A stretch of 64,000 nt of DNA from an uncultured Acidimicrobiaceae bacterium (GCA_963849105.1 CAWKGD010000002.1:33067-97066), one strand, 5' to 3'. Counted from the stretch's first letter, positions 6,928 to 21,720 are shown. Notes: a model not told the origin generated them from the sequence alone. Numbers and translations: made by a program.

Positions 6928-8028
6928 ATGACGCGACAACTCGAAAGCACCCCGATCCAGGACCACTTCTCGATGCCGGCCGAATGGGAGCCCCACGCCG
7001 GCACGTGGGTCGCGTGGCCGGAACGGCCCGACAACTGGCGACTCGGCGGCAAGCCTGCGCAGGCCGCCTTCACGACAGTCATCGATGCGATCGCCGACCA
7101 CGAGCTGGTGACAGTGCTCGTTTCCCGCGGACAATTCGTCAACGCCCGCAACCGCCTACCGGGCAACGTCCGCGTGATCGAGACCTCAACCGACGACGCC
7201 TGGATGCGCGACATCGGGGCGAGTTTCGTCGTCGGTCCGCATGGGGAGGTCCGCGGCGTCGATTGGACGTTCAACGCCTGGGGCGGCTTGGTCGACGGCC
7301 TGTACTTCCCTTGGGACGACGACGACCTCGTCGCCCGCAAGATGTGCGACATCGAACGTCTCGACTACTACCGCACGAACGGCTTCGTCCTCGAAGGTGG
7401 GTCGATCGATGTCGACGGGCAAGGGACGGTGCTGACCACCGAGGAGTGCCTCCTTTCGGCCGGGCGCAACCGGACGATGAGCCAGGATGAAATCGAGCGA
7501 ACGGTGCTCGACTACCTCGGCGCATCGAAGATGATCTGGCTACCCGAAGGCATCTACCTCGACGAGACCGACGGGCACGTGGACAACATCTGCCGCTTCG
7601 TGGCGCCGGGAAAGGTGATCTTGGCCTGGACCGACGACGAGTCGGACCCCCAGTTCAAGCGGTCGCTCGCCGCTCTCCAAGCCCTGGAGGAGACGACCGA
7701 TGCCCGCGGGCGGCACCTCGAGGTGGTGAAGGTCCACCAGCCGAATCCGATCCTCATCACCGAACAGGAGGCGCGCGGCGTCGACGTTGTTCCGGGCAGC
7801 CAGCCGCGTACCGCTGGTGAGCGCCTCGCCGGCTCCTACGTGAACTCCTACTTCGCGCACGGCATCATCGTGCTGCCCGTTTTCGACGACCCGCACGATC
7901 TGGCCGCTGTCGAGACGTACAAGCGACTGTTTCCCGAGCGCGTCATCGTCACGGTGCCCGGCAGGGAGATCCTGCTCGGCGGTGGTGACGTTCACTGCAT
8001 TACCCAGCAGCAGCCAGCAGGCCGTTGA
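6928..8028 (+). CDS. aguA: agmatine deiminase
   Basis: [56 protein letters not shown]; TAGGAG RBS. Confidence 0.96.
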
Positions 8029-8091
8029 GGCCCCCGGTATGCAGCAGGGAGCGCAGGAAGCTGACCGCTCGACCCGGGCGGTCGAAACGAG

Positions 8092-8823
8092 CTAATCCGC
8101 GAAGCGACGCGCGTCGCGCGCCGCGTAGCGCGCGACGTCGTTGTCGGTTTCGGACGCTTGCTCGATCGCGCCCACGATGTCGCTCAGCGAGTCCGCAGGG
8201 AACGCGCATGTCATCTCGTCGGGGGACATCCCGGTGCGCGCCCGGGACAAAGCGCAACCGACGCTCGCTGCCGGGACGCGGTGTTCCTTCGCGATCGCGA
8301 CGACGTGGCACTGGGGCTTGCCGCTGATCGACATCGACGGGATCGCATCGGAGATCACCATCAACTGTCGACCGTTCACCCGGATGAGCACGACGTCGGG
8401 CTGGACGTCTTCGGGAAAGTCGCTGAGCGGTCCGTAGGTGATGGCTTCCGATCGCATCGAAACGGCGGGCAGCGCTGCGACGTCGTCCTCGCCGACCCAG
8501 TGTGCGTCGAGGAGAGTCTTCACGTCCTCGTTCTTCGCTACGTCCGCCAAACTGGCGAGCCCGTGGGTCACGCGGCCCACCGAGCAGTTGCCGTGATCCT
8601 CGGGCACCGTCGTGAAGACGCGCTCGGCCGCCTTCACCCAGAAGACACAGCCGGCGGGGACCCGCCCGCGACGTCCGTCCGCAGCCGGTTCCGACATCGG
8701 TTCGTTGAACGGCGCCACCGAGGCCGGTTTCGCCGCAGAGAACGCGATCGCGATCGGCGGCGACTGCAGATGGAGCGCCGCGGCTAGACGGCGCGCGGTC
8801 TCGGACGAGCGGGAATTCGCCAT
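8092..8823 (-). CDS. DUF169-family protein
   Basis: L.L..PPIAIAF start; Cys motifs AGCVFW, HGNCSVG, PQC, SVGCALSR. Confidence 0.7.
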   Translation of the reverse strand: MANSRSSETARRLAAALHLQSPPIAIAFSAAKPASVAPFNEPMSEPAADGRRGRVPAGCVFWVKAAERVFTTVPEDHGNCSVGRVTHGLASLADVAKNEDVKTLLDAHWVGEDDVAALPAVSMRSEAITYGPLSDFPEDVQPDVVLIRVNGRQLMVISDAIPSMSISGKPQCHVVAIAKEHRVPAASVGCALSRARTGMSPDEMTCAFPADSLSDIVGAIEQASETDNDVARYAARDARRFAD

Positions 8824-8879
8824 GGTGATCGTTTTATCGCATCGAGGCCCCGAGCGAGACGTGTGGCAGGCTGATTTTT

Positions 8880-10163
8880 GTGGGGAGCGCCTCTGAAGAT
8901 CTCGCATTCCGCGGTCTCGTGCATCAGGTGAGCGACGCCGCGCTGCTCGGACGACTCGACCGCGCGCACGAGACGGTCTACGCCGGCTTCGATCCCTCCA
9001 CCGACAGCCTGCACATCGGCAACTTGCTCCTGTTGTGCACACTCCGGCGTCTGCAGAGCTTCGGCCACCGGCCGATCGCCGTCGCGGGGAGCGGAACGGG
9101 GCTGATCGGCGACCCGGGAGGAAAAGACGCCGAACGTCCCCTCATCTCCAAGGACGAGCTCGCCGCGAACATCGAAGGGATCCGGCCGCAACTCGAGCGG
9201 TTCTTGGACTTTTCCAAGTCGGCGGGTGAGTCGCGGGCGGTCGTCGTCGACAACGGCGCCTGGCTCGAGGAGCTCGGCGTGATCGACTTTCTCCGCGAGG
9301 TCGGCAAGCACTTCACCGTGAACCAGATCGTCGCGAAGGAGGCGGTGCGGACCCGCTTCGAGCGACCCGACCAAGGGATCTCCTACACCGAGTTCTCCTA
9401 CATGCTTTTGCAGGCTTATGACTTCCTCCACCTGTTCGACGAGTACGGTTGCCGCCTCCAGATCGGCGGCAGCGACCAGTGGGGGAACATCACCCTCGGC
9501 GTCGAGCTGATCCGCAAGGTCCGCGGCGAGACCGCGTACGCGCTGACGACGCCGCTTGTCACGAAGCCCGACGGGACGAAGTTCGGCAAGTCCGAAGCGG
9601 GCGCGTTCTACCTCGACAAGCGACGCACGAGCCCGTTCGCGCTCTACCAGTTCTTCTTTCGCACCGACGACGCCGTCGCGCCGACGTACCTCCGCTTTTT
9701 CAGCTTCCTCGACCACGACGCGATCTCGGCGCTCGACGAGGCGACCGAAAAGCACCCCGAGCGACGCGAGGCACAGCGCGTGCTCGCGCGCGAGGTGACG
9801 ACGCTCGTCCACGGAGAACAGGAGACCGCGCGCGTCGAGCGGGCGTCGGAGGCGCTCTACACCGAGGACGTCACCGGCCTCGATGAACAGACGCTGCTCG
9901 AGGTGTTCGCCGACGCGCCGTCCTCGACGCTCTCGCGGAGCGCGATCGACGGGGCAGGGCTTGACCCGGTCGAAGCCTTCGCCGCGTCGGGCCTCGTGGC
10001 ATCGAGATCGGGGGCGCGCTCCGCACTCGAACAGGGGGGCGCCTACGTGAACAACCGCCGACTCGAGCCGGGCGAGCGGATCACGCCCGATCGGCTGATC
10101 GGCGGTCGGTATCTCGTCCTGCGCCGGGGGCGTCGAGAGCTCCACCTGCTTCGCTTCGAGTGA
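8880..10163 (+). CDS. tyrS: tyrosine--tRNA ligase
   Basis: YAGFDPSTDSLHIGN, QIGGSDQWGNI, KFGKS; C-terminal S4 domain. Confidence 0.97.
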   Translation: MGSASEDLAFRGLVHQVSDAALLGRLDRAHETVYAGFDPSTDSLHIGNLLLLCTLRRLQSFGHRPIAVAGSGTGLIGDPGGKDAERPLISKDELAANIEGIRPQLERFLDFSKSAGESRAVVVDNGAWLEELGVIDFLREVGKHFTVNQIVAKEAVRTRFERPDQGISYTEFSYMLLQAYDFLHLFDEYGCRLQIGGSDQWGNITLGVELIRKVRGETAYALTTPLVTKPDGTKFGKSEAGAFYLDKRRTSPFALYQFFFRTDDAVAPTYLRFFSFLDHDAISALDEATEKHPERREAQRVLAREVTTLVHGEQETARVERASEALYTEDVTGLDEQTLLEVFADAPSSTLSRSAIDGAGLDPVEAFAASGLVASRSGARSALEQGGAYVNNRRLEPGERITPDRLIGGRYLVLRRGRRELHLLRFE

Positions 10164-10612
10164 GCAGGTCGCGTCTCCTCGCAGCGGCGGCCACCCTCGG
10201 TCTCGCGCTGATCGCCTCGGCGTGCGGGGGATCGCATGCGACGCTCGCCGCGCGCCTTACGGCGTGGAAGTCGGGCTCGTCGTACTCTTCGGATCAGGGC
10301 CTTATCTCGACCGACATCCGTGAGATCGCGACGGGGATTCGCAGCGGTCCGCTCAAGGCGCTCCAAACCGCCTGCGACGGTCTCGGGGTCGACGCGGCGG
10401 ACGCCTACGGCGAGCTTCCGACGCCGGACGAGAAATTGACCGACGACCTCAACGACGAGTACCTGACGGCAGAGAACGCCGCGGAGTCGTGCTCGACGGC
10501 GGCGGAGTTGCACGGAGGCCGCGTCGAGCGCTACCTCACGCTGATCGCCCGCGCCGAGCGCGACCTCCACGCCGCGCAGGCGCGGATGCAGGCGATCCTG
10601 ACCGCCACGTAA
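10160..10612 (+). CDS. hypothetical lipoprotein
   Basis: Signal peptide with lipobox-like IASAC-GG; GTGA overlap with tyrS; two further Cys. Confidence 0.7.
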   Translation: MSRSRLLAAAATLGLALIASACGGSHATLAARLTAWKSGSSYSSDQGLISTDIREIATGIRSGPLKALQTACDGLGVDAADAYGELPTPDEKLTDDLNDEYLTAENAAESCSTAAELHGGRVERYLTLIARAERDLHAAQARMQAILTAT

Positions 10613-12241
10613 TCAGCCGCCCTCGACGAGCGCCCTTTCGGCGAGCGGGATCGGCAAGGTGCCGGTTCCGGCGATCAGGTCGTGGAACTTGCGGAGGTCC
10701 GAGGAGGCGTCGGCCAGGAACCGCTCGCGCATCCGTTCGATCTCGAGGCATCCGGTGAGGTACGACGGTGCCTGGGTCGGCCACTGGCAGTAGCGCCCGA
10801 CTTCGGCCCGGGCGACCGGTTCGGTGAGTCCGACGCGCTCCCGCATGTAGGCGACGGCGTCGTCGAAGCTGAGATCGCCGATGTGCAGGCCGGTGTCGAC
10901 GATGATGCGCGCCGCGCGCCAGATGCGGGCGTTGACGTGACCGAGCAGGCTCGAGTCATCGGTGAAGTAGCCCTGCTCGCGCATCATCTTCTCGGCGTAC
11001 AGCGCCCAGCCCTCGGAGAAATAGGAGGAGTGGATCAGCTGGCGAACGCGGCGCGGGTTCGCCTTCATCCAGGTGAGGTGCCAGTGGTGACCGGGGTACG
11101 CCTCGTGGACCGTGACCGTCGGGATCGATTGGAAACTGTTCGCCGCCAGCCGGCGCTCGTTTTCCTCGGGCGTTGAGTCCTGCGGTGGCCACGGGACATT
11201 GAAATGCCCGCGTCGGCCGGGACGGAATGCCGGCGGGGGGAAGTAGGACGCGACGCCAAGGATTGGTCGCAACACCTCTGGGGTTGGTTCGACGACACAC
11301 TCCTCGTCATCGGGGAAGCTGACCAGGCCGTGCTCGACGAGATACGCGCGCGCCTTTTCCGATTCGTTCTGATACGCGATGCGCAACCCTTCGAAGTCCG
11401 CGGCGTGGTGCGCGAGGTCTCGGTTGAAGACTTCGATCCACGACGTTGCCGAACTGTCGATGCGCGCCGCGATCTCGTTCGCCTCTTCTTCGAGCTCGGC
11501 GAGCACGCGCCGTCCACGTTCGCGAAGCTCGGCTGTCGAGAAGTCGAAGAGTTCGCGTTTTTGCAAGAGATCCGAGTACCGCTCCTCGCCGAGCGCGTAC
11601 GAACCTCTCGCGGACTGCGCGAGTTCACCGAGGTGTGCCCCGAAGGACGCGCACGCTTGTGCAGCGATCCGTCCCGCCTCCGCGACTGATTCACGCAGCT
11701 CTCCGTCGGAGAATTCCAAGGGAAGCGTCTCTTCGAAGTACGAGACGGCGGCTTCGCACTGCTGCCGGGCCCGACCCACGATGAGGGGACTTGCGAGTTC
11801 GGCTTCGAGTGCGGCGCGTCCCGACTGGAGCGCGGTCGGTACGGACCGCAGTCGACTTTGGACATACCCTGCGAGCTCAGATTCGGGGAAGCTGCGGTGG
11901 ACGACGAGCATCAAGATGCCGTCGAAGCACGGATCGACGTAGGTCATCGGGTCGCGTCGCCACGCCTCCCACGACTCGAGGATGACCCGTCCCCGCAACG
12001 TCGACAGCACGGCATCGCGGTCGACGCGTTGCGCGGCAGACAGTCCGTCGTCGCCGACCGACTCGAGGCGTTCGACCCACTCGTGATTTGCGCTGCGTCT
12101 TCTGGCGAACGCTTCTTCGCGCAGGTCGTCGATCTCGCCGTGCGCGCCGTCCGCGCCGAGCGCGGTCGCCAGAATTGGTGATTCGGTGAGTTGTTCTTGC
12201 AGCCAGTCCTCGAGGACTCGGTCGAACGCGTAATCGCTCAT
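10613..12241 (-). CDS. DUF885-family protein (putative metallopeptidase-like)
   Basis: HEAYPGHH, EGWALYAE, WRAARIIVDTGLH, PTQAPSYLTG. Confidence 0.9.
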   Translation of the reverse strand: MSDYAFDRVLEDWLQEQLTESPILATALGADGAHGEIDDLREEAFARRRSANHEWVERLESVGDDGLSAAQRVDRDAVLSTLRGRVILESWEAWRRDPMTYVDPCFDGILMLVVHRSFPESELAGYVQSRLRSVPTALQSGRAALEAELASPLIVGRARQQCEAAVSYFEETLPLEFSDGELRESVAEAGRIAAQACASFGAHLGELAQSARGSYALGEERYSDLLQKRELFDFSTAELRERGRRVLAELEEEANEIAARIDSSATSWIEVFNRDLAHHAADFEGLRIAYQNESEKARAYLVEHGLVSFPDDEECVVEPTPEVLRPILGVASYFPPPAFRPGRRGHFNVPWPPQDSTPEENERRLAANSFQSIPTVTVHEAYPGHHWHLTWMKANPRRVRQLIHSSYFSEGWALYAEKMMREQGYFTDDSSLLGHVNARIWRAARIIVDTGLHIGDLSFDDAVAYMRERVGLTEPVARAEVGRYCQWPTQAPSYLTGCLEIERMRERFLADASSDLRKFHDLIAGTGTLPIPLAERALVEGG

Positions 12242-12308
12242 GGCGTGACCTTACGCGCCGGCTCGTACTAGCGCATTCGCGCGTTGGGCACTCCGGTATC
12301 GTCGGCGC

Positions 12309-12863
12309 GTGCCAAAAGGGAGTCGGCCGGCGAGCAGCGTGCCTGACGACGTGGGCGACGAGGCGTATGACCGGCTGCGTCGGCGAGTCCTGTGGTCGAT
12401 GCCGACGGGGCTCTATCTGATCGGCTCGATCGCCGAACAGGAGCGCAACATGATGACGGCGAGCCTGGTTACCCAGGTGTGCGTCGACCCGAAGCTCGTC
12501 GGTGCGGCGATCGAGAGCGCCTCGCGTACCCACGATCTCATCGAACGTGGAAAGGTATTTGCCCTAACGATGCTGGAACGAGACGACCGTGCGATCGTCC
12601 GGAAGTTTGTGAAGCCCGCTGCGGACGACCGTGAGGCTCGAACGTTGAACGGATATGACTACATAGACGCGCCGGTCACCGGCGCCCCGATCCTTACGGC
12701 GGCGATCGCGTACCTTGATTGCCGGCTCGAACACGCGTTGCCGCTCGGTTCGCACACGTTTTTCGTCGGCGAAGTTGTCGACGCCGCGTTCGGGCCGAAG
12801 ACGACCGAAGACGATCGCAAGGTGATGCGCGTCGAGGACACTCGGATGAGTTACGGCGGATGA
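12309..12863 (+). CDS. flavin reductase-like protein
   Basis: MPTGLYLIG, N.MTASLVTQV, TGAPIL, GSHTFFVGEVV; TATCGT 6 nt upstream of the GTG. Confidence 0.88.
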   Translation: MPKGSRPASSVPDDVGDEAYDRLRRRVLWSMPTGLYLIGSIAEQERNMMTASLVTQVCVDPKLVGAAIESASRTHDLIERGKVFALTMLERDDRAIVRKFVKPAADDREARTLNGYDYIDAPVTGAPILTAAIAYLDCRLEHALPLGSHTFFVGEVVDAAFGPKTTEDDRKVMRVEDTRMSYGG

Positions 12864-12933
12864 TCGCTCCCATCGGGGGGCAAACCGAATCAGCACTCGC
12901 ACAGCAACAGACCCGGGGCGACCGGGAGCCAGC

Positions 12934-14163
12934 ATGAGGACGCCGGCCGGATCGAGTTCACGCTCAGAACGTCGTGGTCGATCCTCGCGGCTCGAGGAGG
13001 TCGCCGTCCGCTTCATCGACACCGACGCCGATTTCGAGATACTCGTCACCGAACTCGATGTCGTCTCGGACTACGCGATCGACACTGAGTTCCACCGCGA
13101 GCGGACGTATTTCGCGCAGTTGGCGCTCGTGCAGCTGGCGTGGCACGGGGGTGTTGCCGTCATCGACCCGCTGTCAGTCGACCTTGTGCCGTTGGCGAAG
13201 CTGTTCCGGAAAGACGCGATCGCGGTGCTCCATGCTGCCGATCAAGATCTCGAAGTCCTCGAACGGGCGACGGGCGCGGTACCGACGCAGATGTTCGATA
13301 CCCAACTCGCGGCGCGCTTTCTCGGATTGTCATCACCGTCGCTCGTCTCGCTCGCCGAGAAGATGCTCGGTCTCCGGCTCGAAAAAGGCGACCAGCTCGC
13401 TGATTGGACGAGGCGGCCGCTCCGTTCTGAGCAGCTTCAATACGCCGCGCACGACGTCGCCCACCTGATCGAATTGAAGCGCGAGATCTGTGCCGAGCTC
13501 GCGCGCCGCGGCCGGCTCGAGTGGGCGGAGGAGGAGTGCGCGGCGCACCTCGAGCGGGCGCGCGCGCTTCCCCCGCCGGAACAGGCGTGGTGGCGGCTTC
13601 GCCAGGCGCGTCAGCTTCGTGGCACCGCGCGGGGCGTAGCTCAGAGCGTCGCGGCCTGGCGGGAGCGGCGCGCCCAGGCGATCGACCGGCCGGTTCGCTA
13701 TGTGCTCTCTGACCTCGCGCTCGCCTCGATCGCGCATCGCCCGCCGCACAGCCGCGCCGACCTCGAGCACGTCCGCAACCTCGATGTGCGGTCGTTGTCA
13801 CAGGGTCTCGTCACCGAACTGCTCGGCGCCGTCTTAGAGGGAGAGTCACTGCGCCACTCGGCGATCGTGCTTCCTCCCGGGCCCGACGGGGTCGTGGTGG
13901 CGAAGCCCGCCGTCGCGCTGGCGCTCGCCTACGCCGGCGAGCTCGCAAAGGCACTCGAGATCGACGCGTCGCTGCTCGCGACGCGCGCCGACATCGTCGA
14001 CTTTCTACAGGTTCCGCCGACCGGCCGGCTGACAAGGTCATGGCGCCACCAACTCGTCGGCGAGCCCCTCGCCAGGCTCGCGGCGGGGAATGCGGCGCTC
14101 GCCCTTGAGGGTGGCGGCCTCGTCATCGAGGAGCGCTCGCACCGACCGATCGCGAGCACCTGA
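12934..14163 (+). CDS. rnd: ribonuclease D (DEDDy exonuclease + HRDC)
   Basis: AIDTEFHRERTY, HAADQDLE, FDTQLAA, DWTRRPL..EQLQYAAHDV, WRE..A...D.P. Confidence 0.92.
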   Translation: MRTPAGSSSRSERRGRSSRLEEVAVRFIDTDADFEILVTELDVVSDYAIDTEFHRERTYFAQLALVQLAWHGGVAVIDPLSVDLVPLAKLFRKDAIAVLHAADQDLEVLERATGAVPTQMFDTQLAARFLGLSSPSLVSLAEKMLGLRLEKGDQLADWTRRPLRSEQLQYAAHDVAHLIELKREICAELARRGRLEWAEEECAAHLERARALPPPEQAWWRLRQARQLRGTARGVAQSVAAWRERRAQAIDRPVRYVLSDLALASIAHRPPHSRADLEHVRNLDVRSLSQGLVTELLGAVLEGESLRHSAIVLPPGPDGVVVAKPAVALALAYAGELAKALEIDASLLATRADIVDFLQVPPTGRLTRSWRHQLVGEPLARLAAGNAALALEGGGLVIEERSHRPIAST

Positions 14164-14181
14164 GCGGACGCACCGCGTCGC

Positions 14182-14433
14182 CTACGACTCGGGGCCTTCG
14201 CTGTCCTTCCCGTTCGGTGCGGGGCGCAGATCGACGGTCAGGGTGAGGATCCCGTCCTCGAGGCTGGCCTCGGCATCGCCGAGCATCGCGAAATCCATGT
14301 AGTCGAACTCCATCTGCTCGACGAACCGACGGCGCTCGGGACCCTCAATCGGGGGAATGCCCCGGTTCCGGACCGCCGCGGCGCGCTCGCGAAAGCGGGC
14401 CACCATCGCCATTGGGTCGAAGACTTCTGGCAC
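14182..14433 (-). CDS. small conserved hypothetical protein
   Basis: Normal codon pattern; FDPMAMVARFRERAAAVRNRGIPPIEG; TACAGT 7 nt upstream of GTG 14433. Confidence 0.7.
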   Translation of the reverse strand: MPEVFDPMAMVARFRERAAAVRNRGIPPIEGPERRRFVEQMEFDYMDFAMLGDAEASLEDGILTLTVDLRPAPNGKDSEGPES

Positions 14434-14601
14434 AAAGCGGACTGTACCGGGGCCTGTTCGGGCTTGCGGTGCGGGATTCGCCCACGTCGCCGGCGTTATG
14501 CTCGCTGCGGACGCTGACGAGCCGAGGCCCACGTTCTGGACGCGCCAGTGCGCCCGGCGGAGGGGGACGGCGCGTTCTCGCTGGATCTTCAGGAGTTACC
14601 C

Positions 14602-14775
14602 GTGAAAAAGGGACGTCACCGCCGCTTCGAAGAAGCACGCAGTCTGAAACGCTCGATCGAGGTCGTCGTCGAGCCCTGTCCAGAGTGCGGGGCCGATCCC
14701 GAGGAGGACCACGCCAGCTGGTGCCTCTATGAGGCCGAAGAGCTCGACGAGGACGAAAACACCGAGCGGCTCTGA
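14602..14775 (+). CDS. small putative Zn-binding protein (CPECG...HASWC, acidic tail)
   Basis: AGGAG at 14591-14595 before GTG; basic N-terminus, CxxC-x8-HxxxC, acidic C-terminus; 57 aa. Confidence 0.6.
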   Translation: MKKGRHRRFEEARSLKRSIEVVVEPCPECGADPEEDHASWCLYEAEELDEDENTERL

Positions 14776-15503
14776 TCGCGTCGCCGAACGACGGGGTGGG
14801 GAAGTACAACGCGTGCCCCCGAGCGCGTCTCTAAGTATTCGACGAGCATCGAATAGACGGTCGGCCCGATCATCTCTTTCAGTTCGTTCGCATTGGAGAC
14901 GTAGACGGGCTCCTTGCCGACAAACGCTTCGGGCGACTCGGTGCACCACCAGTGGAACTCCTCACCCGCTGGTCCCCAGTGGCGCCGATCCCATTGGGTG
15001 ACGGTCGAGGTGACGTGGCCGTCGTCTTCTTCGAAGTCCTCCCGTCGTAGCGGTAGCTGCCAACAGACCTCGGGCTTCGTCGTGAGCGGCGCCACACCGG
15101 CCTCGAGCGCCGCGCGGTGCAGCGAACAGCCCGGTCCGCCGGGAAAGCCCGGCCGGTTCAAGAAGATGCACGCCCCGTCGACGAGGCGCGTCTTCCATTC
15201 ACCTTGGTGCAGGCGGTAGAAGCCGAGCTTCTTCGCCCTGTCGTGGTGCTGGAACTGTTCGGGCGTCAGCTTCGCCGCAGCCTTTTCGACGCGTCGGAGA
15301 TCCTTTTTGTCCGCGAAGTGCGCGCCGTAGCTGCAGCAGCCCTGGACAAGTTCGGGCGCCGGTCCGGTGAGCACTCCCTGGCAGCCGGCGCCGAAAATGC
15401 ACATCCAGGGGCTCGTCAAGAACGTGAGGTCGAGCACCCACGTGCGCTCCTCGTCAGGATCCTCGAAGCTCACCCACTCGTGCGCGTCGTCGATTGCGGA
15501 CAC
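14727..15503 (-). CDS. Cys-rich conserved hypothetical protein (DUF3109-like, possible Fe-S/Zn binding)
   Basis: WMCIFGAGCQG, GCCSYGAHF, GACIFLN, GCSLH, KPEVCWQLPLRR, WWCTE; starts 11 nt after the radical SAM stop. Confidence 0.8.
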   Translation of the reverse strand: MSAIDDAHEWVSFEDPDEERTWVLDLTFLTSPWMCIFGAGCQGVLTGPAPELVQGCCSYGAHFADKKDLRRVEKAAAKLTPEQFQHHDRAKKLGFYRLHQGEWKTRLVDGACIFLNRPGFPGGPGCSLHRAALEAGVAPLTTKPEVCWQLPLRREDFEEDDGHVTSTVTQWDRRHWGPAGEEFHWWCTESPEAFVGKEPVYVSNANELKEMIGPTVYSMLVEYLETRSGARVVLPHPVVRRRDQSRSVFSSSSSSSAS

Positions 15504-15514
15504 GGTGCGGAAAC

Positions 15515-16957
15515 CTACTGGCTGACCGACCGCGCGGCGGACATCGCGACCGGGATGACCGCGTCGATCTGCGCGCGGGTCGGTTCCGCGCAACAGAACC
15601 ATGCCTCGGTGAGGTGTGGTCGCATTTGTGCGGGCGGACCGAGTGGTTCTCGAGCGGCGGGGCGACCGGGATCGGGACGGCCGAACGCGGCGAACACCGT
15701 CGCGCGCACCGCGTCGTACGTCTCGGTTGCACTCGTTCCGAGCGCGCCCTTCTCCTCGATGAGCGTCGCGAGCTTGTCTTGGAGTTCGTCGAGCGCCGGG
15801 TCCGGCGATCTCCAGGTGTAGCTCAACGCATCGGGGTCGAACGCATCAAGGGCGGCTCGGAACGTCGGATCCTCGAGATCGAGGAGCAGCGACCCGGGCG
15901 GGAGGAGGAGGCGGATCGCGTATTGCACCGCGTCGACGTTGTCGATGAGATCGTGGGCTGCGACGAAGTCCAAGATCTCGACGACGTCATCGCGCGTCGT
16001 CCACGGCGTGAAGGGAAGGAACGAGGGCCGGATCTCCACACCGAGTGTGCGCAGCTCACGCACAGCGAGCGCCGCGTCGTCCGCATTGTGTCCCTTGTCG
16101 AGTCTTTCAAGGATCGTGTCGCTCATCGATTCGAACGCGGAGACGACGAACGCCAGGCCGTGTTGTGCGAGCTCGGCGACCGCGTCGCGGTGACGCAGCA
16201 GGTGCTCGACCTTGATCGTCGCGTCGAAGCTCAATTGCGGGTGGCGCTCGTGCATTCGCTGCGTGACTCGGACCGCGTGCGTCGGGCGGTTCAAGAAGTC
16301 GGGGTCGGCGAAGCGGATGTGCCCCGCGCCGAGTCCGACGAGCTCGTCGATTTCGGCGATCACGGCGTCCTGACCGACGACGCGGGAACGACCGCGGTAG
16401 ACGACCGGCACCGGGCAGTGCCGGCAGCGGTGGTTGCAGCCTCGCGTCGATTCGACGGTCCCGACCAGGTGCTCGGCATCGCCGGCGACGAATCGCGCGT
16501 AGCGCTCGAGCGGCGAAAGGAGATCTCGTCCAGAGACCGAGCCGCCCCGGCGCACGGTCCCGAGCTCGACGACGGTCGCGTCGAATGAGCCGTCATCCCC
16601 GTCGAGCCAGGCGGTGATCGCTCCGAGCGCTTCACCGGCGACGAAGAGGTCCCCAGCAATCGCAACGCCCGAGATACGCGCCGCCTCCGCGTAGAGGCCG
16701 AAGAAACACGCCGGCACTTCCTTTCGTTGTTGCCCGAGACGTGAGCGTGCCGCCAGCGCGAGGCGCAGCGCCGTGTGCATCGGCACCGAGAAACCGACGG
16801 CGTCTGGCCAGTCGAGATCGACCCCGTCGAACGACTCGATGGCGAGATCGGAGGCGCGCACCTCGTGACCCGCAGACCGCAACGACCCGGCGATCGACGC
16901 CAGACCGAGCGGCTGCGCGCCGAGTTCATAGGTCGAGATCAAAAGGACGCGGCTCAC
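15515..16957 (-). CDS. B12-binding-domain radical SAM protein of the CUAEP/CCAEP-tail type
   Basis: N-terminal cobalamin-binding-like domain (LLISTYELGAQPLGLAS, FSVPMHTALR), CxxxCxxC (GCNHRCRHC), C-terminal WFCCAEPT. Confidence 0.9.
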   Translation of the reverse strand: MSRVLLISTYELGAQPLGLASIAGSLRSAGHEVRASDLAIESFDGVDLDWPDAVGFSVPMHTALRLALAARSRLGQQRKEVPACFFGLYAEAARISGVAIAGDLFVAGEALGAITAWLDGDDGSFDATVVELGTVRRGGSVSGRDLLSPLERYARFVAGDAEHLVGTVESTRGCNHRCRHCPVPVVYRGRSRVVGQDAVIAEIDELVGLGAGHIRFADPDFLNRPTHAVRVTQRMHERHPQLSFDATIKVEHLLRHRDAVAELAQHGLAFVVSAFESMSDTILERLDKGHNADDAALAVRELRTLGVEIRPSFLPFTPWTTRDDVVEILDFVAAHDLIDNVDAVQYAIRLLLPPGSLLLDLEDPTFRAALDAFDPDALSYTWRSPDPALDELQDKLATLIEEKGALGTSATETYDAVRATVFAAFGRPDPGRPAAREPLGPPAQMRPHLTEAWFCCAEPTRAQIDAVIPVAMSAARSVSQ

Positions 16958-18216
16958 GAGTCTGGCTCTTTCGTGATTTCAATCGACAGGTGCGCGTGGG
17001 CGACGCGCAGCGCCTTTTCCACGTCGCCGGGGTCGTCCGCCCGCGCGAAGAGGAAGCCGAGATAACGATCGCCTTCCGGCCACGCCGCGATCGTCCGGCC
17101 GGAGGGAACGGTGATCTCGAGCTCGGTGACGTGCTCGACGGCAAGCGCCTCGTCTCGTCCGTCCACGCCTTCGAAGCGACCAGCTCTTGGGATCGGGATC
17201 ATCATCACGCCGGACGCGCCGGGCTGGCGGGAAGGTGGAACATCGTCGATGCCGAGCGCGTGCGCGAGCACGAGCTCTTCGAGCGAACGGTTCGAGACGA
17301 AGCGGAGCGCCTTCGAGCACTTGCCGCCGATCGTGCGCGCCGCGGCCTCGAGGACGATGACCGCGGCGTCTGGATCGGCACCGGACGGCGAGAGCCGCGC
17401 TTCGGCGTGCACGGGACCGTCGACGAGGCCGATCGCCGCGCAGGCGCGCCCGATCTCGTCTTTGACGCGCACTAAGAGGTCCGGGTGATGGCGCGACGGG
17501 GTGACGTAGATCGTCTCCTCGAAATATGGGCCGGTGAGCGGGTCGGGCTTGTCGAAGATCGCAAGCGTCGAAAGCACTCCATCGGTGAGCATGCCCTCGA
17601 GCGCGACCTCGTCACCTGCGACGTAGCGCTCGACGAGAAGCGGCTCGCCCAGCGCACACCCGGCTGCGAGCGCGACCCGGCGCGTCCGCGCCGCTGCCCG
17701 GCGCGCGCCGTCCGCGTCGTCAGCACGTTCGACGCCGCGGCTCGCGGAGAGCGACACCGGCTTGATGACAACCGAATAGCCGAGAAGATCGGCCGCGTCG
17801 GCGACATCGTCGTGTTCCCGCTCGCCCGCGTCGATGACCGCGAACGGCGGCTGGCTCACGTCCGCCTTTGCGAACAGTCGGCGCATCGTCACCTTGTCGC
17901 GCGTCGCCTCGATCGCCGAAGGAGGGTTCTTGTCGATCCCGAGTCGCTCGGCGGCGTACGCTGCCGCGAGCGCGCCCTCGTCGTCGACGGCGACGACGGC
18001 GTCGATCGGCGTGTTCTTCGCGAAGCGTTCGACGATCTGCGCCGCCGTTGCTGGTTCGCGCAGGGGAAGCGCGACGAAGCGCTCGGGCGAGGACGCCGCC
18101 ATCGCCTGAGGGACGTCCGAGGCGGAAACGACGTCGACGCCGAGACGTGCCGCGGCGTCGAGGAACTCCTTTGCCCGGTACGTCTGGGACGGCAGGACGA
18201 GCATCACCCGGGGCAC
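16954..18216 (-). CDS. ATP-grasp ligase (L-amino acid ligase-like)
   Basis: RDKVTMR, VVIKPVSLSASRGV, LLVERYV.G.EV, FDKPDPL.GPYFEET, HAE.R, LEAAARTIGG; GTGA overlap with the radical SAM gene. Confidence 0.88.
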   Translation of the reverse strand: MPRVMLVLPSQTYRAKEFLDAAARLGVDVVSASDVPQAMAASSPERFVALPLREPATAAQIVERFAKNTPIDAVVAVDDEGALAAAYAAERLGIDKNPPSAIEATRDKVTMRRLFAKADVSQPPFAVIDAGEREHDDVADAADLLGYSVVIKPVSLSASRGVERADDADGARRAAARTRRVALAAGCALGEPLLVERYVAGDEVALEGMLTDGVLSTLAIFDKPDPLTGPYFEETIYVTPSRHHPDLLVRVKDEIGRACAAIGLVDGPVHAEARLSPSGADPDAAVIVLEAAARTIGGKCSKALRFVSNRSLEELVLAHALGIDDVPPSRQPGASGVMMIPIPRAGRFEGVDGRDEALAVEHVTELEITVPSGRTIAAWPEGDRYLGFLFARADDPGDVEKALRVAHAHLSIEITKEPDS

Positions 18217-18289
18217 ACCTCATTGTGCCGGGAAATGGCCAGGTCGCCGTCGCTTCGGGCGGCGCGCCGGCTGGCCATACGATGGTCGC

Positions 18290-18931
18290 GTGGCTGATTC
18301 GGACGACGGCTCTGGCGCGACTCCCGTCCTCAAGCTGACCGACGCCGCCCGCCAGGCGGTCCTGGAGGCGCGAGCCGGCGAGGCGAACGCCGAGAGCCTG
18401 GCGCTGTTCGTCGAGGTGACCGGCGCCCAGAACGGTGCGTACACCTACGAGATGTGGTTCGAGGCGCTCGCCGACGCGACCTCACGCGACGTCGTCAACG
18501 ACTTCGACGACCTCGCCGTGGTGGTCGGTGGGGACAGCGTCGACAAACTCACCGGCGCCACGCTGGACGCCGGCGAGCACGGGCTCGTGATGTTGAACCC
18601 GAACACGCCACGCACCCCCGCGCCGACGTCACCGGCTCCCCAGGGCGACACGACGAGCCCGGTCGCTCGCTCGGTGATCGCCATTCTCGAAGAGCAGGTG
18701 AATCCCCAGATCGCGATGCACGGCGGCCGGGCGGACCTCGTCGCCGTCGACAACGGGATCGCCTACCTGCGGCTGTCAGGGGGATGCCAGGGATGTGGCC
18801 TCGCCGCGCTGACGCTTTCCCAGGGGATCCTGGTCGCGATCAAAGACGCGGTCCCCGAGATCGTCGACGTCGTCGACGTGACGGCGCACGCCGAGGGGAC
18901 GAACCCCTACTACGAACCGGCAAAGAAGTAA
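18290..18931 (+). CDS. nfuA: Fe-S cluster carrier NfuA
   Basis: Degenerate A-type N-terminal domain plus NifU domain (VNPQIAMHGG, LSGGCQGCG, DVTAHAEGTNPYY). Confidence 0.9.
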   Translation: MADSDDGSGATPVLKLTDAARQAVLEARAGEANAESLALFVEVTGAQNGAYTYEMWFEALADATSRDVVNDFDDLAVVVGGDSVDKLTGATLDAGEHGLVMLNPNTPRTPAPTSPAPQGDTTSPVARSVIAILEEQVNPQIAMHGGRADLVAVDNGIAYLRLSGGCQGCGLAALTLSQGILVAIKDAVPEIVDVVDVTAHAEGTNPYYEPAKK

Positions 18932-18941
18932 CTCGCCGGGC

Positions 18942-20147
18942 GTGCTCCGTTTCCTCACCGCCGGGGAATCGCACGGGAGGGCTCTCGTCGTCATCGTCGA
19001 GGGGCTCCCTGCCGGCCTGCGCGTCTCCGCGGAGGCGATCTCGGACGAGCTCGCCAGGCGCCGCCTCGGTTACGGGCGCGGACCGCGCATGCGCTTCGAG
19101 CGCGATGAACTGACGCTTCTGGGCGGCGTGCGCCATGGGCGCACCCTCGGCTCGCCGGTCGCGATCGAGATCGCCAACACCGAGTGGGCGAAGTGGGAAC
19201 AAGAGATGTCTCCGGAGCCGGGCGCGCCGGCGCGCGAGCTCAGCACACCGCGGCCCGGCCACGCGGACCTCGCCGGCATGTTGAAGTACGGCTTTTCCGA
19301 CGCCCGCGACGTCCTCGAGCGCGCCTCGGCGCGCGAGACGGCGGCGCGCGTCGCGGCGGGGGGACTCGCGAAGGCGCTCCTTCAAGAGATCGGCGTCGCA
19401 GTTTTGAGCCACGTCGTCGCGATGGGCTCGGTGAAGGCCGCACCAGGGCTGCGGCCCGCACCGGGAGATCTCGAGGGGGTCGACGCGTCCGAGGTGCGCT
19501 GTTTCGACGCCGACGCCGAGCAGAAGATGATCGCCGAGATCAAAGAGGCGGCGAAGGACGGCGACTCGCTCGGCGGCGCCGCCGAGGTGCTCGCCTACGG
19601 GGTGCCGGTCGGCCTCGGAAGCCATGTCCAGTGGGACCGCAAACTCGACGGATTGCTCGCGCAGGCGGTGATGAGCATCCCGGCGGTGAAAGCGGTCGAG
19701 ATCGGCGAGGCATTCGCGATCGCGGAACGGCGCGGCTCGGAGTCGCACGACGCGATCGAGTGGGACGGCTCGGCGAAGCGCTACTCGCGACCGACCTCGC
19801 GGGCGGGTGGGATCGAGGGCGGGATCTCGAACGGCTCGTTGATCGCCGTGCGCGCGGTCATGAAGCCGCTCTCGACGCTCTCGCGGCCCGTCATCCCGAC
19901 GGTCGACACGAAGACGAAGGAATCGACGGTCTCTTTCAAAGAGCGCACCGACGTGACGTCGGTGCCGGCGATGGGCGTCGTCGCCGAGACGATGGTCGCG
20001 CTCGTGCTCGCCTCCGAGGCGCTCCGCAAGTTCGGCGGCGACTCGGTCGCCGAATTCGTCCGCAACCATGCAAACTTCGAAGCCGCGACGCACGAGACGC
20101 CGTCGGCGGCGCCCGAGCTCACCGTCGTGCCCGAAGTCGGGACGTGA
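18942..20147 (+). CDS. aroC: chorismate synthase
   Basis: LRFLTAGESHG, PRPGHADL, ERASARETA, GGIEGGISNG. Confidence 0.97.
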   Translation: MLRFLTAGESHGRALVVIVEGLPAGLRVSAEAISDELARRRLGYGRGPRMRFERDELTLLGGVRHGRTLGSPVAIEIANTEWAKWEQEMSPEPGAPARELSTPRPGHADLAGMLKYGFSDARDVLERASARETAARVAAGGLAKALLQEIGVAVLSHVVAMGSVKAAPGLRPAPGDLEGVDASEVRCFDADAEQKMIAEIKEAAKDGDSLGGAAEVLAYGVPVGLGSHVQWDRKLDGLLAQAVMSIPAVKAVEIGEAFAIAERRGSESHDAIEWDGSAKRYSRPTSRAGGIEGGISNGSLIAVRAVMKPLSTLSRPVIPTVDTKTKESTVSFKERTDVTSVPAMGVVAETMVALVLASEALRKFGGDSVAEFVRNHANFEAATHETPSAAPELTVVPEVGT

Positions 20148-21720
20148 TGGGGTTTCCCGATCCGCGCGGGCGCCGCCACATCGTGCTCGTCGGGATGATG
20201 GGCGCCGGCAAGACGTCAACTGGTCGACGTCTTGCCGCGCTGTTGCAGCGGAAGTTCGTCGACACCGACGCGGTGATCGAGACCGAGTCCCAGATGACGA
20301 TCGGTGAGCTGTTCCAACGTGACGGCGAGCAGGCGTTCCGGGTGATCGAGCGCCGGGTGTTCGCCGACGCGCTCTCGTCAACCGAGCCGTCGGTGATCGC
20401 CACTGGTGGCGGCGCGGTCTTGGACGACGAGATCCGAAAGCGCGTCGCGCAAGAGGGCGAAGTCGTCTGGCTGCGTGCGCGGACCGCGACGCTTGCCGAG
20501 CGGGTCGAAGGGATCCCGGAGCGACCGCTGCTCGGCGAGGACGCGCACGCCACCCTCGCCGACTTGGAGCCGCAGCGACGGCCGCTCTACGAGCAGGTGG
20601 CGAGTTCGGTCATCGACGTCGACGACCTCGATCCCGAAGCGACGGTGACGGCGGTCATCCGCGCCATCCAACGGCGCGTCGACGTCCTGACGGCGCAGCG
20701 GAGCTACCCGGTCATCGTCGGCCCGGGTGCCCGTCACCTCCTCCGGGAGTTCGTCCCGCCAAGGGCGCGCACGGCGGCGATCGTCACCCAAGCCGGACTG
20801 AACATCTCTGTCGTCCCCGGCATCGAAGAGGCCGAGTTCGTCATCGGCCTCGGCGAGCAGGCGAAGTCGCTCGAGACGATCGAAGAGCTCTGTCGGGGCT
20901 TTGCCCGGGCGGGGATGCACCGTGACGACGTCGTCGTCGCGCTCGGCGGCGGCGTCGTGACCGACGTATCGGGGTTCGCCGCGGCGTGTTTCCATCGCGG
21001 CCTGGCGGTGATCCACGTCGCGACGACCCTCCTTGCGCAGATCGACGCGGCGATCGGTGGCAAGACGGGCGTCAACCTGCCGGAGGGAAAGAACCTCGTC
21101 GGTGCGTACTGGCAGCCCCTGGCGGTCGTCTGTGACACCGATCTGCTGGCGTCGCTTCCCGATGCCGAGTGGGTCTCGGGATTGGGTGAGATGGCGAAGT
21201 ACGAGCTGCTGGGGCTCGGCAATCTCGGCGACTTGCCGCTCCCCGATCGGGTCGCGTCGTGCGTGGCGATGAAGGCGGAGTACGTCTCGGCCGACGAACG
21301 CGACGGCGACAGGAGGCGGCTGCTGAACTACGGTCACACGCTCGCCCACGCCCTCGAGGCCGAGCACTTCGGCGCCGACGGTGGTCACATCCGCCACGGC
21401 GAGGCCGTCGCCATCGGGCTCGTCTTCGCCGCCCGGCTCGCCCGCGTTTTGGGCCGGGTCGACGACGACGCCGTCGCGCACCACGTCGCCGTCGTCGAGG
21501 GTTACGGACTGCCGAGCGCGCTTCCCACCGGGGTCGACCTCAGCCGGCTCGTCGAGTTCATGGAGCGCGACAAGAAGGGCGGCGAGGGCCTCACCTTCGT
21601 GCTCGACGGTCCGCAAGGCTTCGCCGTTGTGAGCGGGGTCGAAGAAAACGCCGTCCGCGAGGCGCTCGCCGAGTCCCGGGCGGCCGAAGCCGTCGCCGGC
21701 CCGCCGGGGGGACGCGATGA
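20147..21720 (+). CDS. aroKB: bifunctional shikimate kinase / 3-dehydroquinate synthase; as assembled it has no in-frame stop at its expected end
   Basis: GMMGAGKT P-loop, GEQAFR, ATGGG; then GGGVVTD, TTLLAQIDAAIGGKTGVN, LNYGHTLAHALE, HGEAV. End placed at the TGA of the ATGA overlap with aroQ, which is one base out of frame. Confidence 0.88.

Follow-up and report, generated by a model that had tools for sequence, protein, structure and literature searches.

What does a radical S-adenosylmethionine (SAM) enzyme with two adjacent cysteines near its C-terminus do, when its gene overlaps that of an ATP-grasp ligase and lies beside the gene of an iron-sulfur (Fe-S) carrier? This question is raised by positions 14727-18931 of a 64,000-nucleotide stretch of DNA from an uncultured Acidimicrobiaceae bacterium (GCA_963849105.1, CAWKGD010000002.1:33067-97066), which we call the window; its source genome (2.64 Mb) is 93% complete. 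A preliminary description had read the locus as an orphan pathway of three genes, encoding the ligase, a B12-type radical SAM enzyme reminiscent of ArsL, and a Cys-rich protein, with nfuA as an outside landmark. The family assignment, the likeness to ArsL and the ligase as a neighbour held up, while the inclusion of the Cys-rich gene and the role given to nfuA did not, and the B12 label corresponds to a sub-threshold match. The identities of the genes, their homology, conservation and co-occurrence were observed directly, and they point with high confidence to a unit composed of the ligase, the CC-tail radical SAM enzyme and the divergently encoded NfuA-like protein, often joined by a DUF169 protein as the fourth partner; the Cys-rich gene sits next to it as a lineage-specific neighbour only. 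Conserved but uncharacterised, the cassette represents a sister system to that of ArsL, and the copy in the window is an unexceptional example with the Cys form. As to its chemistry we favour, with a probability of about 0.4, a reading by analogy with ArsL, in which SAM's 3-amino-3-carboxypropyl (ACP) moiety would be transferred to a soft atom held by the tail and the resulting 4-substituted 2-aminobutanoate would then be ligated into a dipeptide.

A ligase and a radical SAM gene divergent from nfuA

The ATP-grasp gene, of the L-amino-acid-ligase type, occupies positions 16954-18216 of the minus strand (420 aa open reading frame, ORF). Downstream of it on the same strand lies the radical SAM gene (15515-16957; 480 aa), whose GTG start (16957-16955) overlaps the TGA stop of the ligase gene (16956-16954) in a GTGA. 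The gene of the NfuA-like carrier (18290-18931, plus strand; 213 aa) is divergent from the ligase gene, and the two starts, at 18290 and 18216, stand head to head across an intergenic region of 73 nt (18217-18289). When all features were re-read from the sequence, every coordinate of the preliminary description proved correct.

To describe the neighbourhood in related bacteria, a pattern scan of species-representative genomes was used, which matched at least 599 stretches, at least 581 of them encoding a relative of the radical SAM protein. The best 80 of these at least 581 loci (L002-L081) formed the near-relative set. Because one of the two patterns contained the CC tail, this set leans to Cys forms and near relatives; it comes mostly from Acidimicrobiales, Solirubrobacterales and Thermoleophilaceae, with a few Chloroflexota and one metagenome-assembled genome of an Acidobacteriota. 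Genes were counted by tblastn, and only in loci with enough flank, since ORF calls based on third-position GC content (GC3) were noisy and sometimes fell on the opposite strand. The ligase gene was found on the same strand and at most 400 nt upstream of the radical SAM gene in 65/73 loci (missing in L025, L027, L029, L048, L052, L055, L064 and L071), and anywhere in the locus in 67/73. The two genes that the preliminary description had paired are thus conserved neighbours. A divergent NfuA gene lay within 2.5 kb of the radical SAM gene in 66/69 loci (missing in L022, L052 and L064). Four loci had no ligase gene (L027, L048, L055 and L071), and NfuA stood about 105 nt from the radical SAM gene in them. 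The DUF169 gene was present in 32/60 loci. The order of ligase, radical SAM and NfuA genes recurs in most related loci and is therefore more than chance.

The same association was followed in a phylum sample of 401 genomes. At a threshold of E 1e-60, 34 genomes were positive for the radical SAM protein, at 36 places. Twenty of these places made up a wider set; the 16 left out were seven in unpublished genomes, five cut by a contig end (G358, G265:C35, G262, G347 and G303), three others (G023, G038 and G225) and the window itself. In the wider set the ligase gene was adjacent to the radical SAM gene in 10/19 loci and within the locus in 13/19, NfuA was in the locus in 13/19, and the DUF169 gene was directly downstream in 7/20. 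At the level of whole genomes, a ligase orthologue was detected in 41/401 and in 32/34 radical-SAM-positive genomes (not in G038 and G174, the match in G174 being cut by a contig end), an NfuA-like protein in 61/401 and likewise in 32/34, and both partners together in 32 of the 34. These tallies include the unpublished genomes G018, G082, G120, G174, G239 and G268, and in the NfuA and ligase searches also G088. No statistics were applied to the co-occurrence, since related genomes are not independent.

The ligase gene was also found in nine genomes that gave no radical SAM match (G053, G088, G094, G119, G133, G170, G215, G281 and G291). One of them is a special case: in G053 (L111, G053:C2, 2401-3778) a radical SAM gene lies between the ligase and DUF169 genes and is split over several frames, either as a pseudogene or through assembly indels, and the genome was scored as negative because of these frameshifts. 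The genes beside four of the ligase-only loci had nothing in common, a major facilitator superfamily (MFS) transporter being seen once. In one genome with the ligase-NfuA pair and no radical SAM match, a gene of the MFS_3 exporter type follows the ligase gene (L109, G291:C3, 2444-3811, plus strand). Likewise, a comparison of 20 flanking genes of the wider loci with Pfam revealed nothing recurrent (FdhE-like, M20 peptidase, ABC, MFS, kinases and others).

NfuA turned out to be more than the landmark as which it had been introduced. Of all partners of the cassette it is the most constant, and it is kept beside the ligase gene even in six genomes (G017, G047, G160, G238, G092 and G369) in which the radical SAM gene is on another contig or at a distance of 16-34 kb. 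Outside the window's class, 30 sampled genomes were NfuA-positive, and 25 of these were also radical-SAM-positive. In the window's own order, NfuA was present in 22/22 sampled genomes, and the radical SAM or ligase gene in one only (G225, a partial match).

The Cys-rich gene behaved differently. It is located at 14727-15503 on the minus strand (258 aa, 8 Cys), its GTG start at 15503 following the TAG stop of the radical SAM gene (15517-15515) after a gap of 11 nt. A longer open reading from an ATG at 15602 is also available; we favour the GTG, because homologues are mostly 240-262 aa long and their alignment to the short form begins at about its residue 5. Pfam and NCBIfam gave no match to the protein even at E 1, nor did the PF11307.13 model in the whole-genome search. 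It was therefore provisionally assigned to PF11307 (Rv0495c/DUF3109-type) through its homologues: among the matches listed, all 120 of the closest (62-86% identical) carry the precomputed PF11307.14, and the nearest ESM Atlas clusters are 100% PF11307 and named Rv0495c. In Mycobacterium tuberculosis, deletion of Rv0495c is described as disturbing the redox balance (preprint, 10.1101/2023.08.22.554105, in the part of the text available).

That the Cys-rich protein would work together with the ligase and the radical SAM enzyme, with nfuA as a mere landmark, was the original proposal. With 11 nt between them, co-transcription of the Cys-rich and radical SAM genes is suggested in this genome, and the same order occurs in 12 related Acidimicrobiales loci. 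However, the gene directly follows the radical SAM gene in only 12/67 near-relative loci and in 0/20 wider loci, and NfuA is the better-conserved partner. Within the class the Cys-rich gene was detected in 36/81 genomes, including all sampled members of two families in which the phylum sample had no radical SAM match (f2, 4/4; f3, 10/10), and it was not found in a radical-SAM-positive family (f9, 0/9). About 0.9 Mb separates the two genes in one genome (G077). The three-gene pathway thus fails on gene distribution, and we consider it highly improbable; the Cys-rich gene is a bystander that has spread independently of the radical SAM gene.

It belongs instead to a local block common to the closest Acidimicrobiales, which comprises aroC, nfuA, the ligase and radical SAM genes, the PF11307 gene, small ORFs, an RNase D-like gene, a flavin reductase gene and a DUF885 gene; these flanking genes, together with tyrS (8880-10163), are also the neighbours in the window. 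In the near-relative set aroC was in the locus in 12/66. Two small ORFs after the PF11307 gene are conserved and match no family. The first (14548-14775, plus strand; 75 aa, with CPECG...HASWC) is convergent with the PF11307 gene, whose 3' end it overlaps, and its ORF cluster occurs in 6 loci. The second (14182-14532, minus strand; 116 aa) belongs to a cluster found in 16 loci, which also includes unrelated shikimate-kinase-like ORFs.

The radical SAM protein and its C-terminal cysteines

Searches with hidden Markov models placed the radical SAM protein in the CUAEP/CCAEP-tail lineage, as had been supposed. The model of this radical SAM (seleno)protein family, NF040546, gave 486.1 bits (E 1e-145) over positions 1-467 of 468; in a search of the whole genome the value was 485.7 bits. 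As the curated cut-off is 500 bits, 14 more than was reached, we regard the protein as a divergent relative rather than as a member of the curated equivalog. The second-best model was that of ArsL, NF040542 (241.7 bits, E 1.6e-71; cut-off 450 bits). The radical SAM core was matched by PF04055 with 57.7 bits, and the CxxxCxxC cluster motif lies at 16415-16438 of the minus strand (C174-N-H-R-C178-R-H-C181 in the translation); C174, C178 and C181 are invariant in 75 homologues. Membership in the lineage gives no mechanism, as the family has no assigned function: it is called uncharacterised in the available part of a preprint (Haft 2022, 10.1101/2022.07.06.499078). In agreement with the preliminary description, which knew of no characterised reaction, a full-text search for the CUAEP, CCAEP and NF040546 family, with most subscription journals outside its coverage, returned this preprint only, and no function for the family in print.

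The AlphaFold2 model of the protein, built with the 75 homologues, had a predicted local distance difference test score (pLDDT) of 92 and a predicted template modelling score (pTM) of 0.91. The closest solved fold was AprD4 (6FD2; TM-score 0.66/0.70, E 1e-15, 18% identical), followed by OxsB, MgmA, TsrM and MiaB, and these structural neighbours are 13-19% identical. A search of the PDB by sequence found only OxsB (E 4e-4). AprD4 differs from OxsB in its use of cobalamin. The cobalamin domain named in the preliminary description corresponds to a sub-threshold match only, since the B12-binding model PF02310 gave 30.2 bits against a Pfam cut-off of 32.1.

The likeness to ArsL, introduced earlier as an analogy, proved to be full-length homology. 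Besides the match to the ArsL model, a Priestia protein with an RCCLKC tail is 30% identical to it over 420 aa (E 4e-65), and in an alignment of six sequences (A5) the two families share many invariant polar residues and the CC pairs of their tails align. ArsL is described as cleaving SAM to methylthioadenosine (MTA) and an ACP radical, with As(III) bound by the three Cys of its RCCLKC tail (10.1101/2024.02.01.577332, available part), and an Fe-C(ACP) intermediate attacked by arsenous acid has been proposed in a 2026 preprint (10.64898/2026.04.29.721666, available part). In the accessible portions of these two sources, ArsL and Dph2 are the only enzymes named that make an ACP radical from SAM.

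The tail of the window protein is encoded by the codons TGT TGC GCG GAA CCG at 15595-15581 of the minus strand, within ...LTEAWFCCAEPTRAQ..., and the motif WFCCAEPT spans residues 453-460, with the vicinal pair C455 and C456. W453, F454, C455, C456, E458, P459, T460 and Q463 are invariant in the 75 homologues, and the general motif can be written R..LxExWFC[C/U][A/S]EPTxxQ, which is invariant. In the AlphaFold2 model the residues before the motif (431-450) have pLDDT values of 97 and 95, and residues 451-460 a value of 78. C455 and C456 are the only tail Cys, and no third one aligns with ArsL in A5.

Could the protein do the same job as ArsL, making an As-C bond, so that the cassette product would be an arsinothricin-like amino acid or dipeptide? 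The full-length homology, the alignment of the vicinal pair with the first two Cys of RCCLKC and the presence of an ATP-grasp gene near ArsL-family genes in Bacillus and Priestia speak for it. The last point comes from plasmids. Among 37 plasmid records with a match, 36 were of the RCCLKC type (Bacillus, Priestia, Pantoea and others), and in both that were inspected, from Priestia megaterium (L105) and Bacillus cereus (L106), an ATP-grasp_4 gene is found within an arsenic island at a distance of 3-4 kb from the radical SAM gene with the RCCLKC tail, in an operon with a carboxymuconolactone-decarboxylase-family gene and arsR (L105, 1662-2885; L106, 1441-2664). Its LAL_C2 match is sub-threshold (28.5 bits against a cut-off of 29.4), and a full-text search for arsinothricin together with ATP-grasp returned nothing relevant. 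On the other side, the window protein scores far below the ArsL cut-off, and it lacks the third tail Cys, whereas all three bind As(III) in ArsL. Moreover, no arsM, arsR, aquaporin, ArsN or efflux genes were found in the window or in the related loci scanned; the arsenic islands of L105 and L106 hold many ars genes, whereas the setting in the window is one of core genes (aroC, tyrS, RNase D). An arsenic-carbon bond as the product is therefore very unlikely.

At the second tail position Cys is exchangeable with selenocysteine (Sec). The window copy is the Cys variant, as had been described, and Sec forms are common among its relatives. In the phylum sample, 23 of the 36 radical SAM places contained one in-frame TGA. 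Of the 20 loci that were fetched, 11 had the TGA precisely in the place of the second tail Cys (WFC*AEPT or WYC*AEPT), and the other 9 had CC. In the source genome, 93% complete as it is, selA was not found and the selD model gave 53 bits against a cut-off of 125. A cultured organism, Thermomicrobium roseum DSM 5159, carries the Sec form: on its megaplasmid (NC_011961.1; L104, 6935-8371) the annotated gene ends in ...WFC, and the deposited coding sequence is truncated, because the TGA that comes next, read as Sec, continues into UAEP. A divergent pyridoxal phosphate-dependent aminotransferase gene and an MFS transporter gene are its neighbours, instead of ligase or NfuA genes, and the megaplasmid record contains no ligase orthologue at E 1e-10. 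The MFS genes here and in G291, two cases only, hint at an exported product.

An exchange of Cys and Sec at one position is typical of redox-active sites, and redox-active C-terminal tails are known from thioredoxin reductase and ribonucleotide reductase. These tails are the model for an alternative in which the enzyme would follow canonical 5'-deoxyadenosyl (5'-dA) chemistry, abstracting a hydrogen from an amino acid or a small peptide, possibly the dipeptide that the ligase would have made beforehand, and the tail would be a shuttle for electrons or hydrogen atoms instead of a substrate site. The canonical CxxxCxxC motif fits such chemistry, as do the closest solved folds, which are of the 5'-dA type; the tail has two conserved Cys where ArsL has three, and one of them is exchangeable with Sec. 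However, the closest homologue of known chemistry is ArsL, which carries the same cluster motif and yet makes MTA and an ACP radical. The residues invariant across ArsL and the window family span the whole core, and the structural neighbours are just 13-19% identical. We consider the canonical route rather improbable.

The ligase, the NfuA-like carrier and DUF169

The ATP-grasp gene product contains three domains that all score above their cut-offs, ATP-grasp_4 (75.5 bits), LAL_C2 (52.2 bits) and ATPgrasp_N (43.9 bits). A profile of its family aligned with positions 21-404 of the 410 of the ligase BL00235 (PDB 3VOT) at E 7.7e-59; for BacD the value was 8e-31. The E-x-A-A-R-x-G-G region aligns with that of known L-amino acid ligases, so that by sequence the protein is of the L-amino-acid-ligase (LAL) type. 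It forms a subfamily apart from BL00235, since the single sequence reached only E 6e-27 to it. The products of BL00235 include Met-Gly and Met-Met (review table, PMC6920838, as far as the table is available). The methionine in these dipeptides is itself a 4-substituted 2-aminobutanoate.

The carrier has the architecture of NfuA: the N-domain is A-type-like, degenerate and free of Cys, and the C-domain is a NifU domain that carries a CxxC. The C-domain (PF01106) was matched with 67.9 bits (cut-off 27) at residues 131-195, and its GGCxGCG carries C166 and C169, which are invariant in alignment A3. The A-type match of the N-domain (TIGR00049) is weak, covers residues 14-105, and involves no conserved Cys. 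Because the protein is below the cut-offs of both NfuA equivalogs (TIGR03341, 89.1 against 269.35; NF008392, 63 against 268), we call it NfuA-like. Its gene is the sole full-length copy in the source genome. Several NfuA-like matches with one in-frame TGA were seen in the window's order and class (G346, G133, G277, G199, G147, G324 and G251); these may be Sec forms of NfuA or broken genes.

Comparison by eye of the intergenic region with that of 13 related loci showed a TACSAT box that precedes the start of nfuA by a few bases and, in the centre, a GGCGCGCCGCG-like element. The box could serve a leaderless transcript as its -10 box. A search for promoter-like sites found none, terminator-like sites were no commoner than in shuffled sequences, and no Rfam family matched at E 0.1 across 7500-20500. 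Among the read sets listed for 14700-18950 there was no RNA run, and six DNA runs from three studies carry part of this interval.

A further partner lies outside the interval to which the preliminary description was confined. The DUF169 gene is located at 8092-8823 on the minus strand, 5.9 kb from the cassette and divergent from tyrS (243 aa from the ATG at 8823; PF02596, 73.6-74.3 bits, cut-off 27), and C59, C80, C172 and C190 of its product are invariant. An orthologue was present in 18/401 genomes, 16 of them radical-SAM-positive; the other two were G053, with its frameshifted radical SAM pieces, and G252. A search of the PDB by sequence gave no match at E 1, and fold searches returned a best Foldseek hit with E 8e-3 and a TM-score of about 0.2 and a best VIA-align wide Z of 5.4 on 44 aligned residues. 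These searches identified no solved relative of DUF169, which does not in itself make its fold a novel one.

In some loci a different small protein is encoded directly after the radical SAM gene, namely a SaoD/DsrE-family protein of 121 aa with a CxxC (NF040913, 199 bits; cut-off 152). It was observed in 7/73 near-relative loci (L032, 2545-2910, minus strand, and 6 other loci of the Solirubrobacterales type) and in 2/20 wider loci (L086 and L087).

Taken together, these partners raise another alternative, in which the genes would serve the trafficking of Fe-S clusters, sulfur or selenium and make no free metabolite. The ligase would act on or with the NfuA protein, and the radical SAM enzyme and DUF169 would handle a chalcogen derived from a cluster or delivered by a relay. 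The retention of the ligase gene beside nfuA in the six genomes with a distant radical SAM gene, the 25 radical-SAM-positive genomes among the 30 NfuA-positive ones outside the window's class, the four invariant Cys of DUF169 and the SaoD/DsrE-family genes are all consistent with it. In addition, a complex between ligase and NfuA was predicted with a score of 0.37 (0.37, 0.37 and 0.41 in separate runs) against 0.09 for the best control, which gives weak support. In the calibration of this test the mark was reached by 58/80 solved complexes and 2/110 mismatched pairs, and at scores of at most 0.60 by 7 of the 80 solved complexes and both mismatches. Between the runs at least 40% of contacts are in agreement, and the partner pLDDT is 71 or more; as our own alignments were used, the calibration counts hold only approximately. 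However, a pass as weak as this is wrong more often than right. The ligase is nearest to ligases of free amino acids (BL00235 and BacD) and not to the protein-modifying RimK and LysX. An acidic C-terminal tail is typical of the protein substrates of ATP-grasp enzymes, whereas the NfuA-like protein ends in ...AKK. A purely trafficking function is thus unlikely.

A proposed route and its relation to known systems

By analogy with ArsL, we infer a mode of SAM cleavage, a substrate, an order of steps and a product as follows. The radical SAM enzyme would cleave SAM the ArsL way, yielding methylthioadenosine and an ACP radical or an Fe-C intermediate, and the ACP group would be joined to a soft nucleophile held on the vicinal Cys-Cys, elsewhere Cys-Sec, of the C-terminal motif. 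Candidates for this nucleophile are a sulfur species, a selenium species or, by analogy only, a metalloid. The enzyme would thereby release a 4-substituted 2-aminobutanoate, which the translationally coupled ligase would condense with a second amino acid to a dipeptide. NfuA would load or repair the [4Fe-4S] cluster and may also bind the ligase, for which the complex prediction described above gives weak support, and DUF169, or in some lineages the SaoD/DsrE-family protein, would hand over the heteroatom.

Several observations weigh against this route. The ArsL-like cleavage mode is taken from the sister family only, and the NF040546 score stays under its cut-off. The tail has two Cys instead of three and is placed about 45 residues further from the core, so the held substrate may differ, or the pair may be redox-active. 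Neither ars, arsM nor other metalloid genes were found nearby, and the additional 20 flanking genes revealed nothing recurrent. The Bacillus ATP-grasp protein is only 19% identical to the window ligase (E 8e-7). Furthermore, the partners are not obligate. Ligase-positive genomes without a radical SAM match include G119 and G133, which are 98-100% complete, and in 6/19 wider loci the radical SAM gene has no ligase or NfuA gene nearby; in T. roseum it stands beside an aminotransferase and an MFS transporter gene instead. Finally, 21 of the 22 genomes of the window's order have NfuA without a radical SAM gene, and in this lineage NfuA may be a housekeeping gene with the operon beside it.

ArsL was characterised only recently, and its sister family is far larger: when 8000 candidates were scored, at least 6972 proteins reached E 1e-20, and species-representative genomes contain at least 581 loci. 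It is conceivable, though we think it improbable, that soil Actinomycetota and Chloroflexota harbour a widespread second branch of ArsL-type enzymes, which would transfer ACP onto a chalcogen or metalloid delivered by DUF169, a SaoD-like protein or NfuA, and so make a new amino acid containing sulfur, selenium or a metalloid, which an NfuA-coupled ligase would turn into a dipeptide, either a new small-molecule thiol or selenol or an antimetabolite. An orphan gene has become a defined, expressible cassette, in which the ligase, the Fe-S carrier and DUF169 travel along and the PF11307 neighbour need not be included. The Cys form suits a heterologous host, since it needs no selenocysteine insertion. 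An assay of the cassette, whichever way it turned out, would show whether chemistry based on ACP radicals is widespread, and could bring to light a new metabolite containing sulfur, selenium or a metalloid.

With the named members of the NF040546 family the radical SAM protein shares its best model, the exact tail motif and the gene context; it differs from them as a divergent Cys-form member that scores 486.1 against 500 bits. AprD4 has the same B12-binding-like N-domain and radical SAM core, but it is a diol dehydratase with 5'-dA chemistry, lacks a Cys-Cys tail and is only 18% identical. Vicinal Cys-Cys or Cys-Sec pairs near the C-terminus are also known from the tails of MerA and thioredoxin reductase. 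CU motifs are reported for SaoL, HgcA and MerT (Haft 2022, 10.1101/2022.07.06.499078, available part). None of these five proteins is homologous to the radical SAM enzyme, and the resemblance is one of motif only; by this analogy the pair could carry a soft metal or shuttle electrons.

The ligase has the three-domain ATP-grasp architecture of BL00235 and BacD and differs from them in being paired with nfuA, a pairing which, to our knowledge, has not been reported for known LALs. In Escherichia coli, the radical SAM enzymes LipA and MiaB are served by NfuA as an Fe-S carrier. The window protein has the same layout of a degenerate, Cys-free A-type N-domain and a CxxC NifU C-domain, but it scores 89 against 269 bits and is linked by gene order to one ligase/radical SAM operon.

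The nearest relative in kind is ArsL, with which the radical SAM enzyme shares the N-terminal Rossmann-like, B12-binding-like domain, the CxxxCxxC core and the C-terminal vicinal Cys pair, and a ligase-like gene is again part of the setting, since ArsL-family genes in Bacillus and Priestia have an ATP-grasp gene nearby too. The two families differ in score (242 against a cut-off of 450 bits), in the tail (RCCLKC with three Cys in ArsL; WFC[C/U][A/S]EPT with two Cys and a linker of about 45 extra residues here) and in company: ArsL is accompanied by ArsM and ArsQ, whereas the window family has NfuA and DUF169 as partners, stands outside any arsenic context and includes Sec variants.

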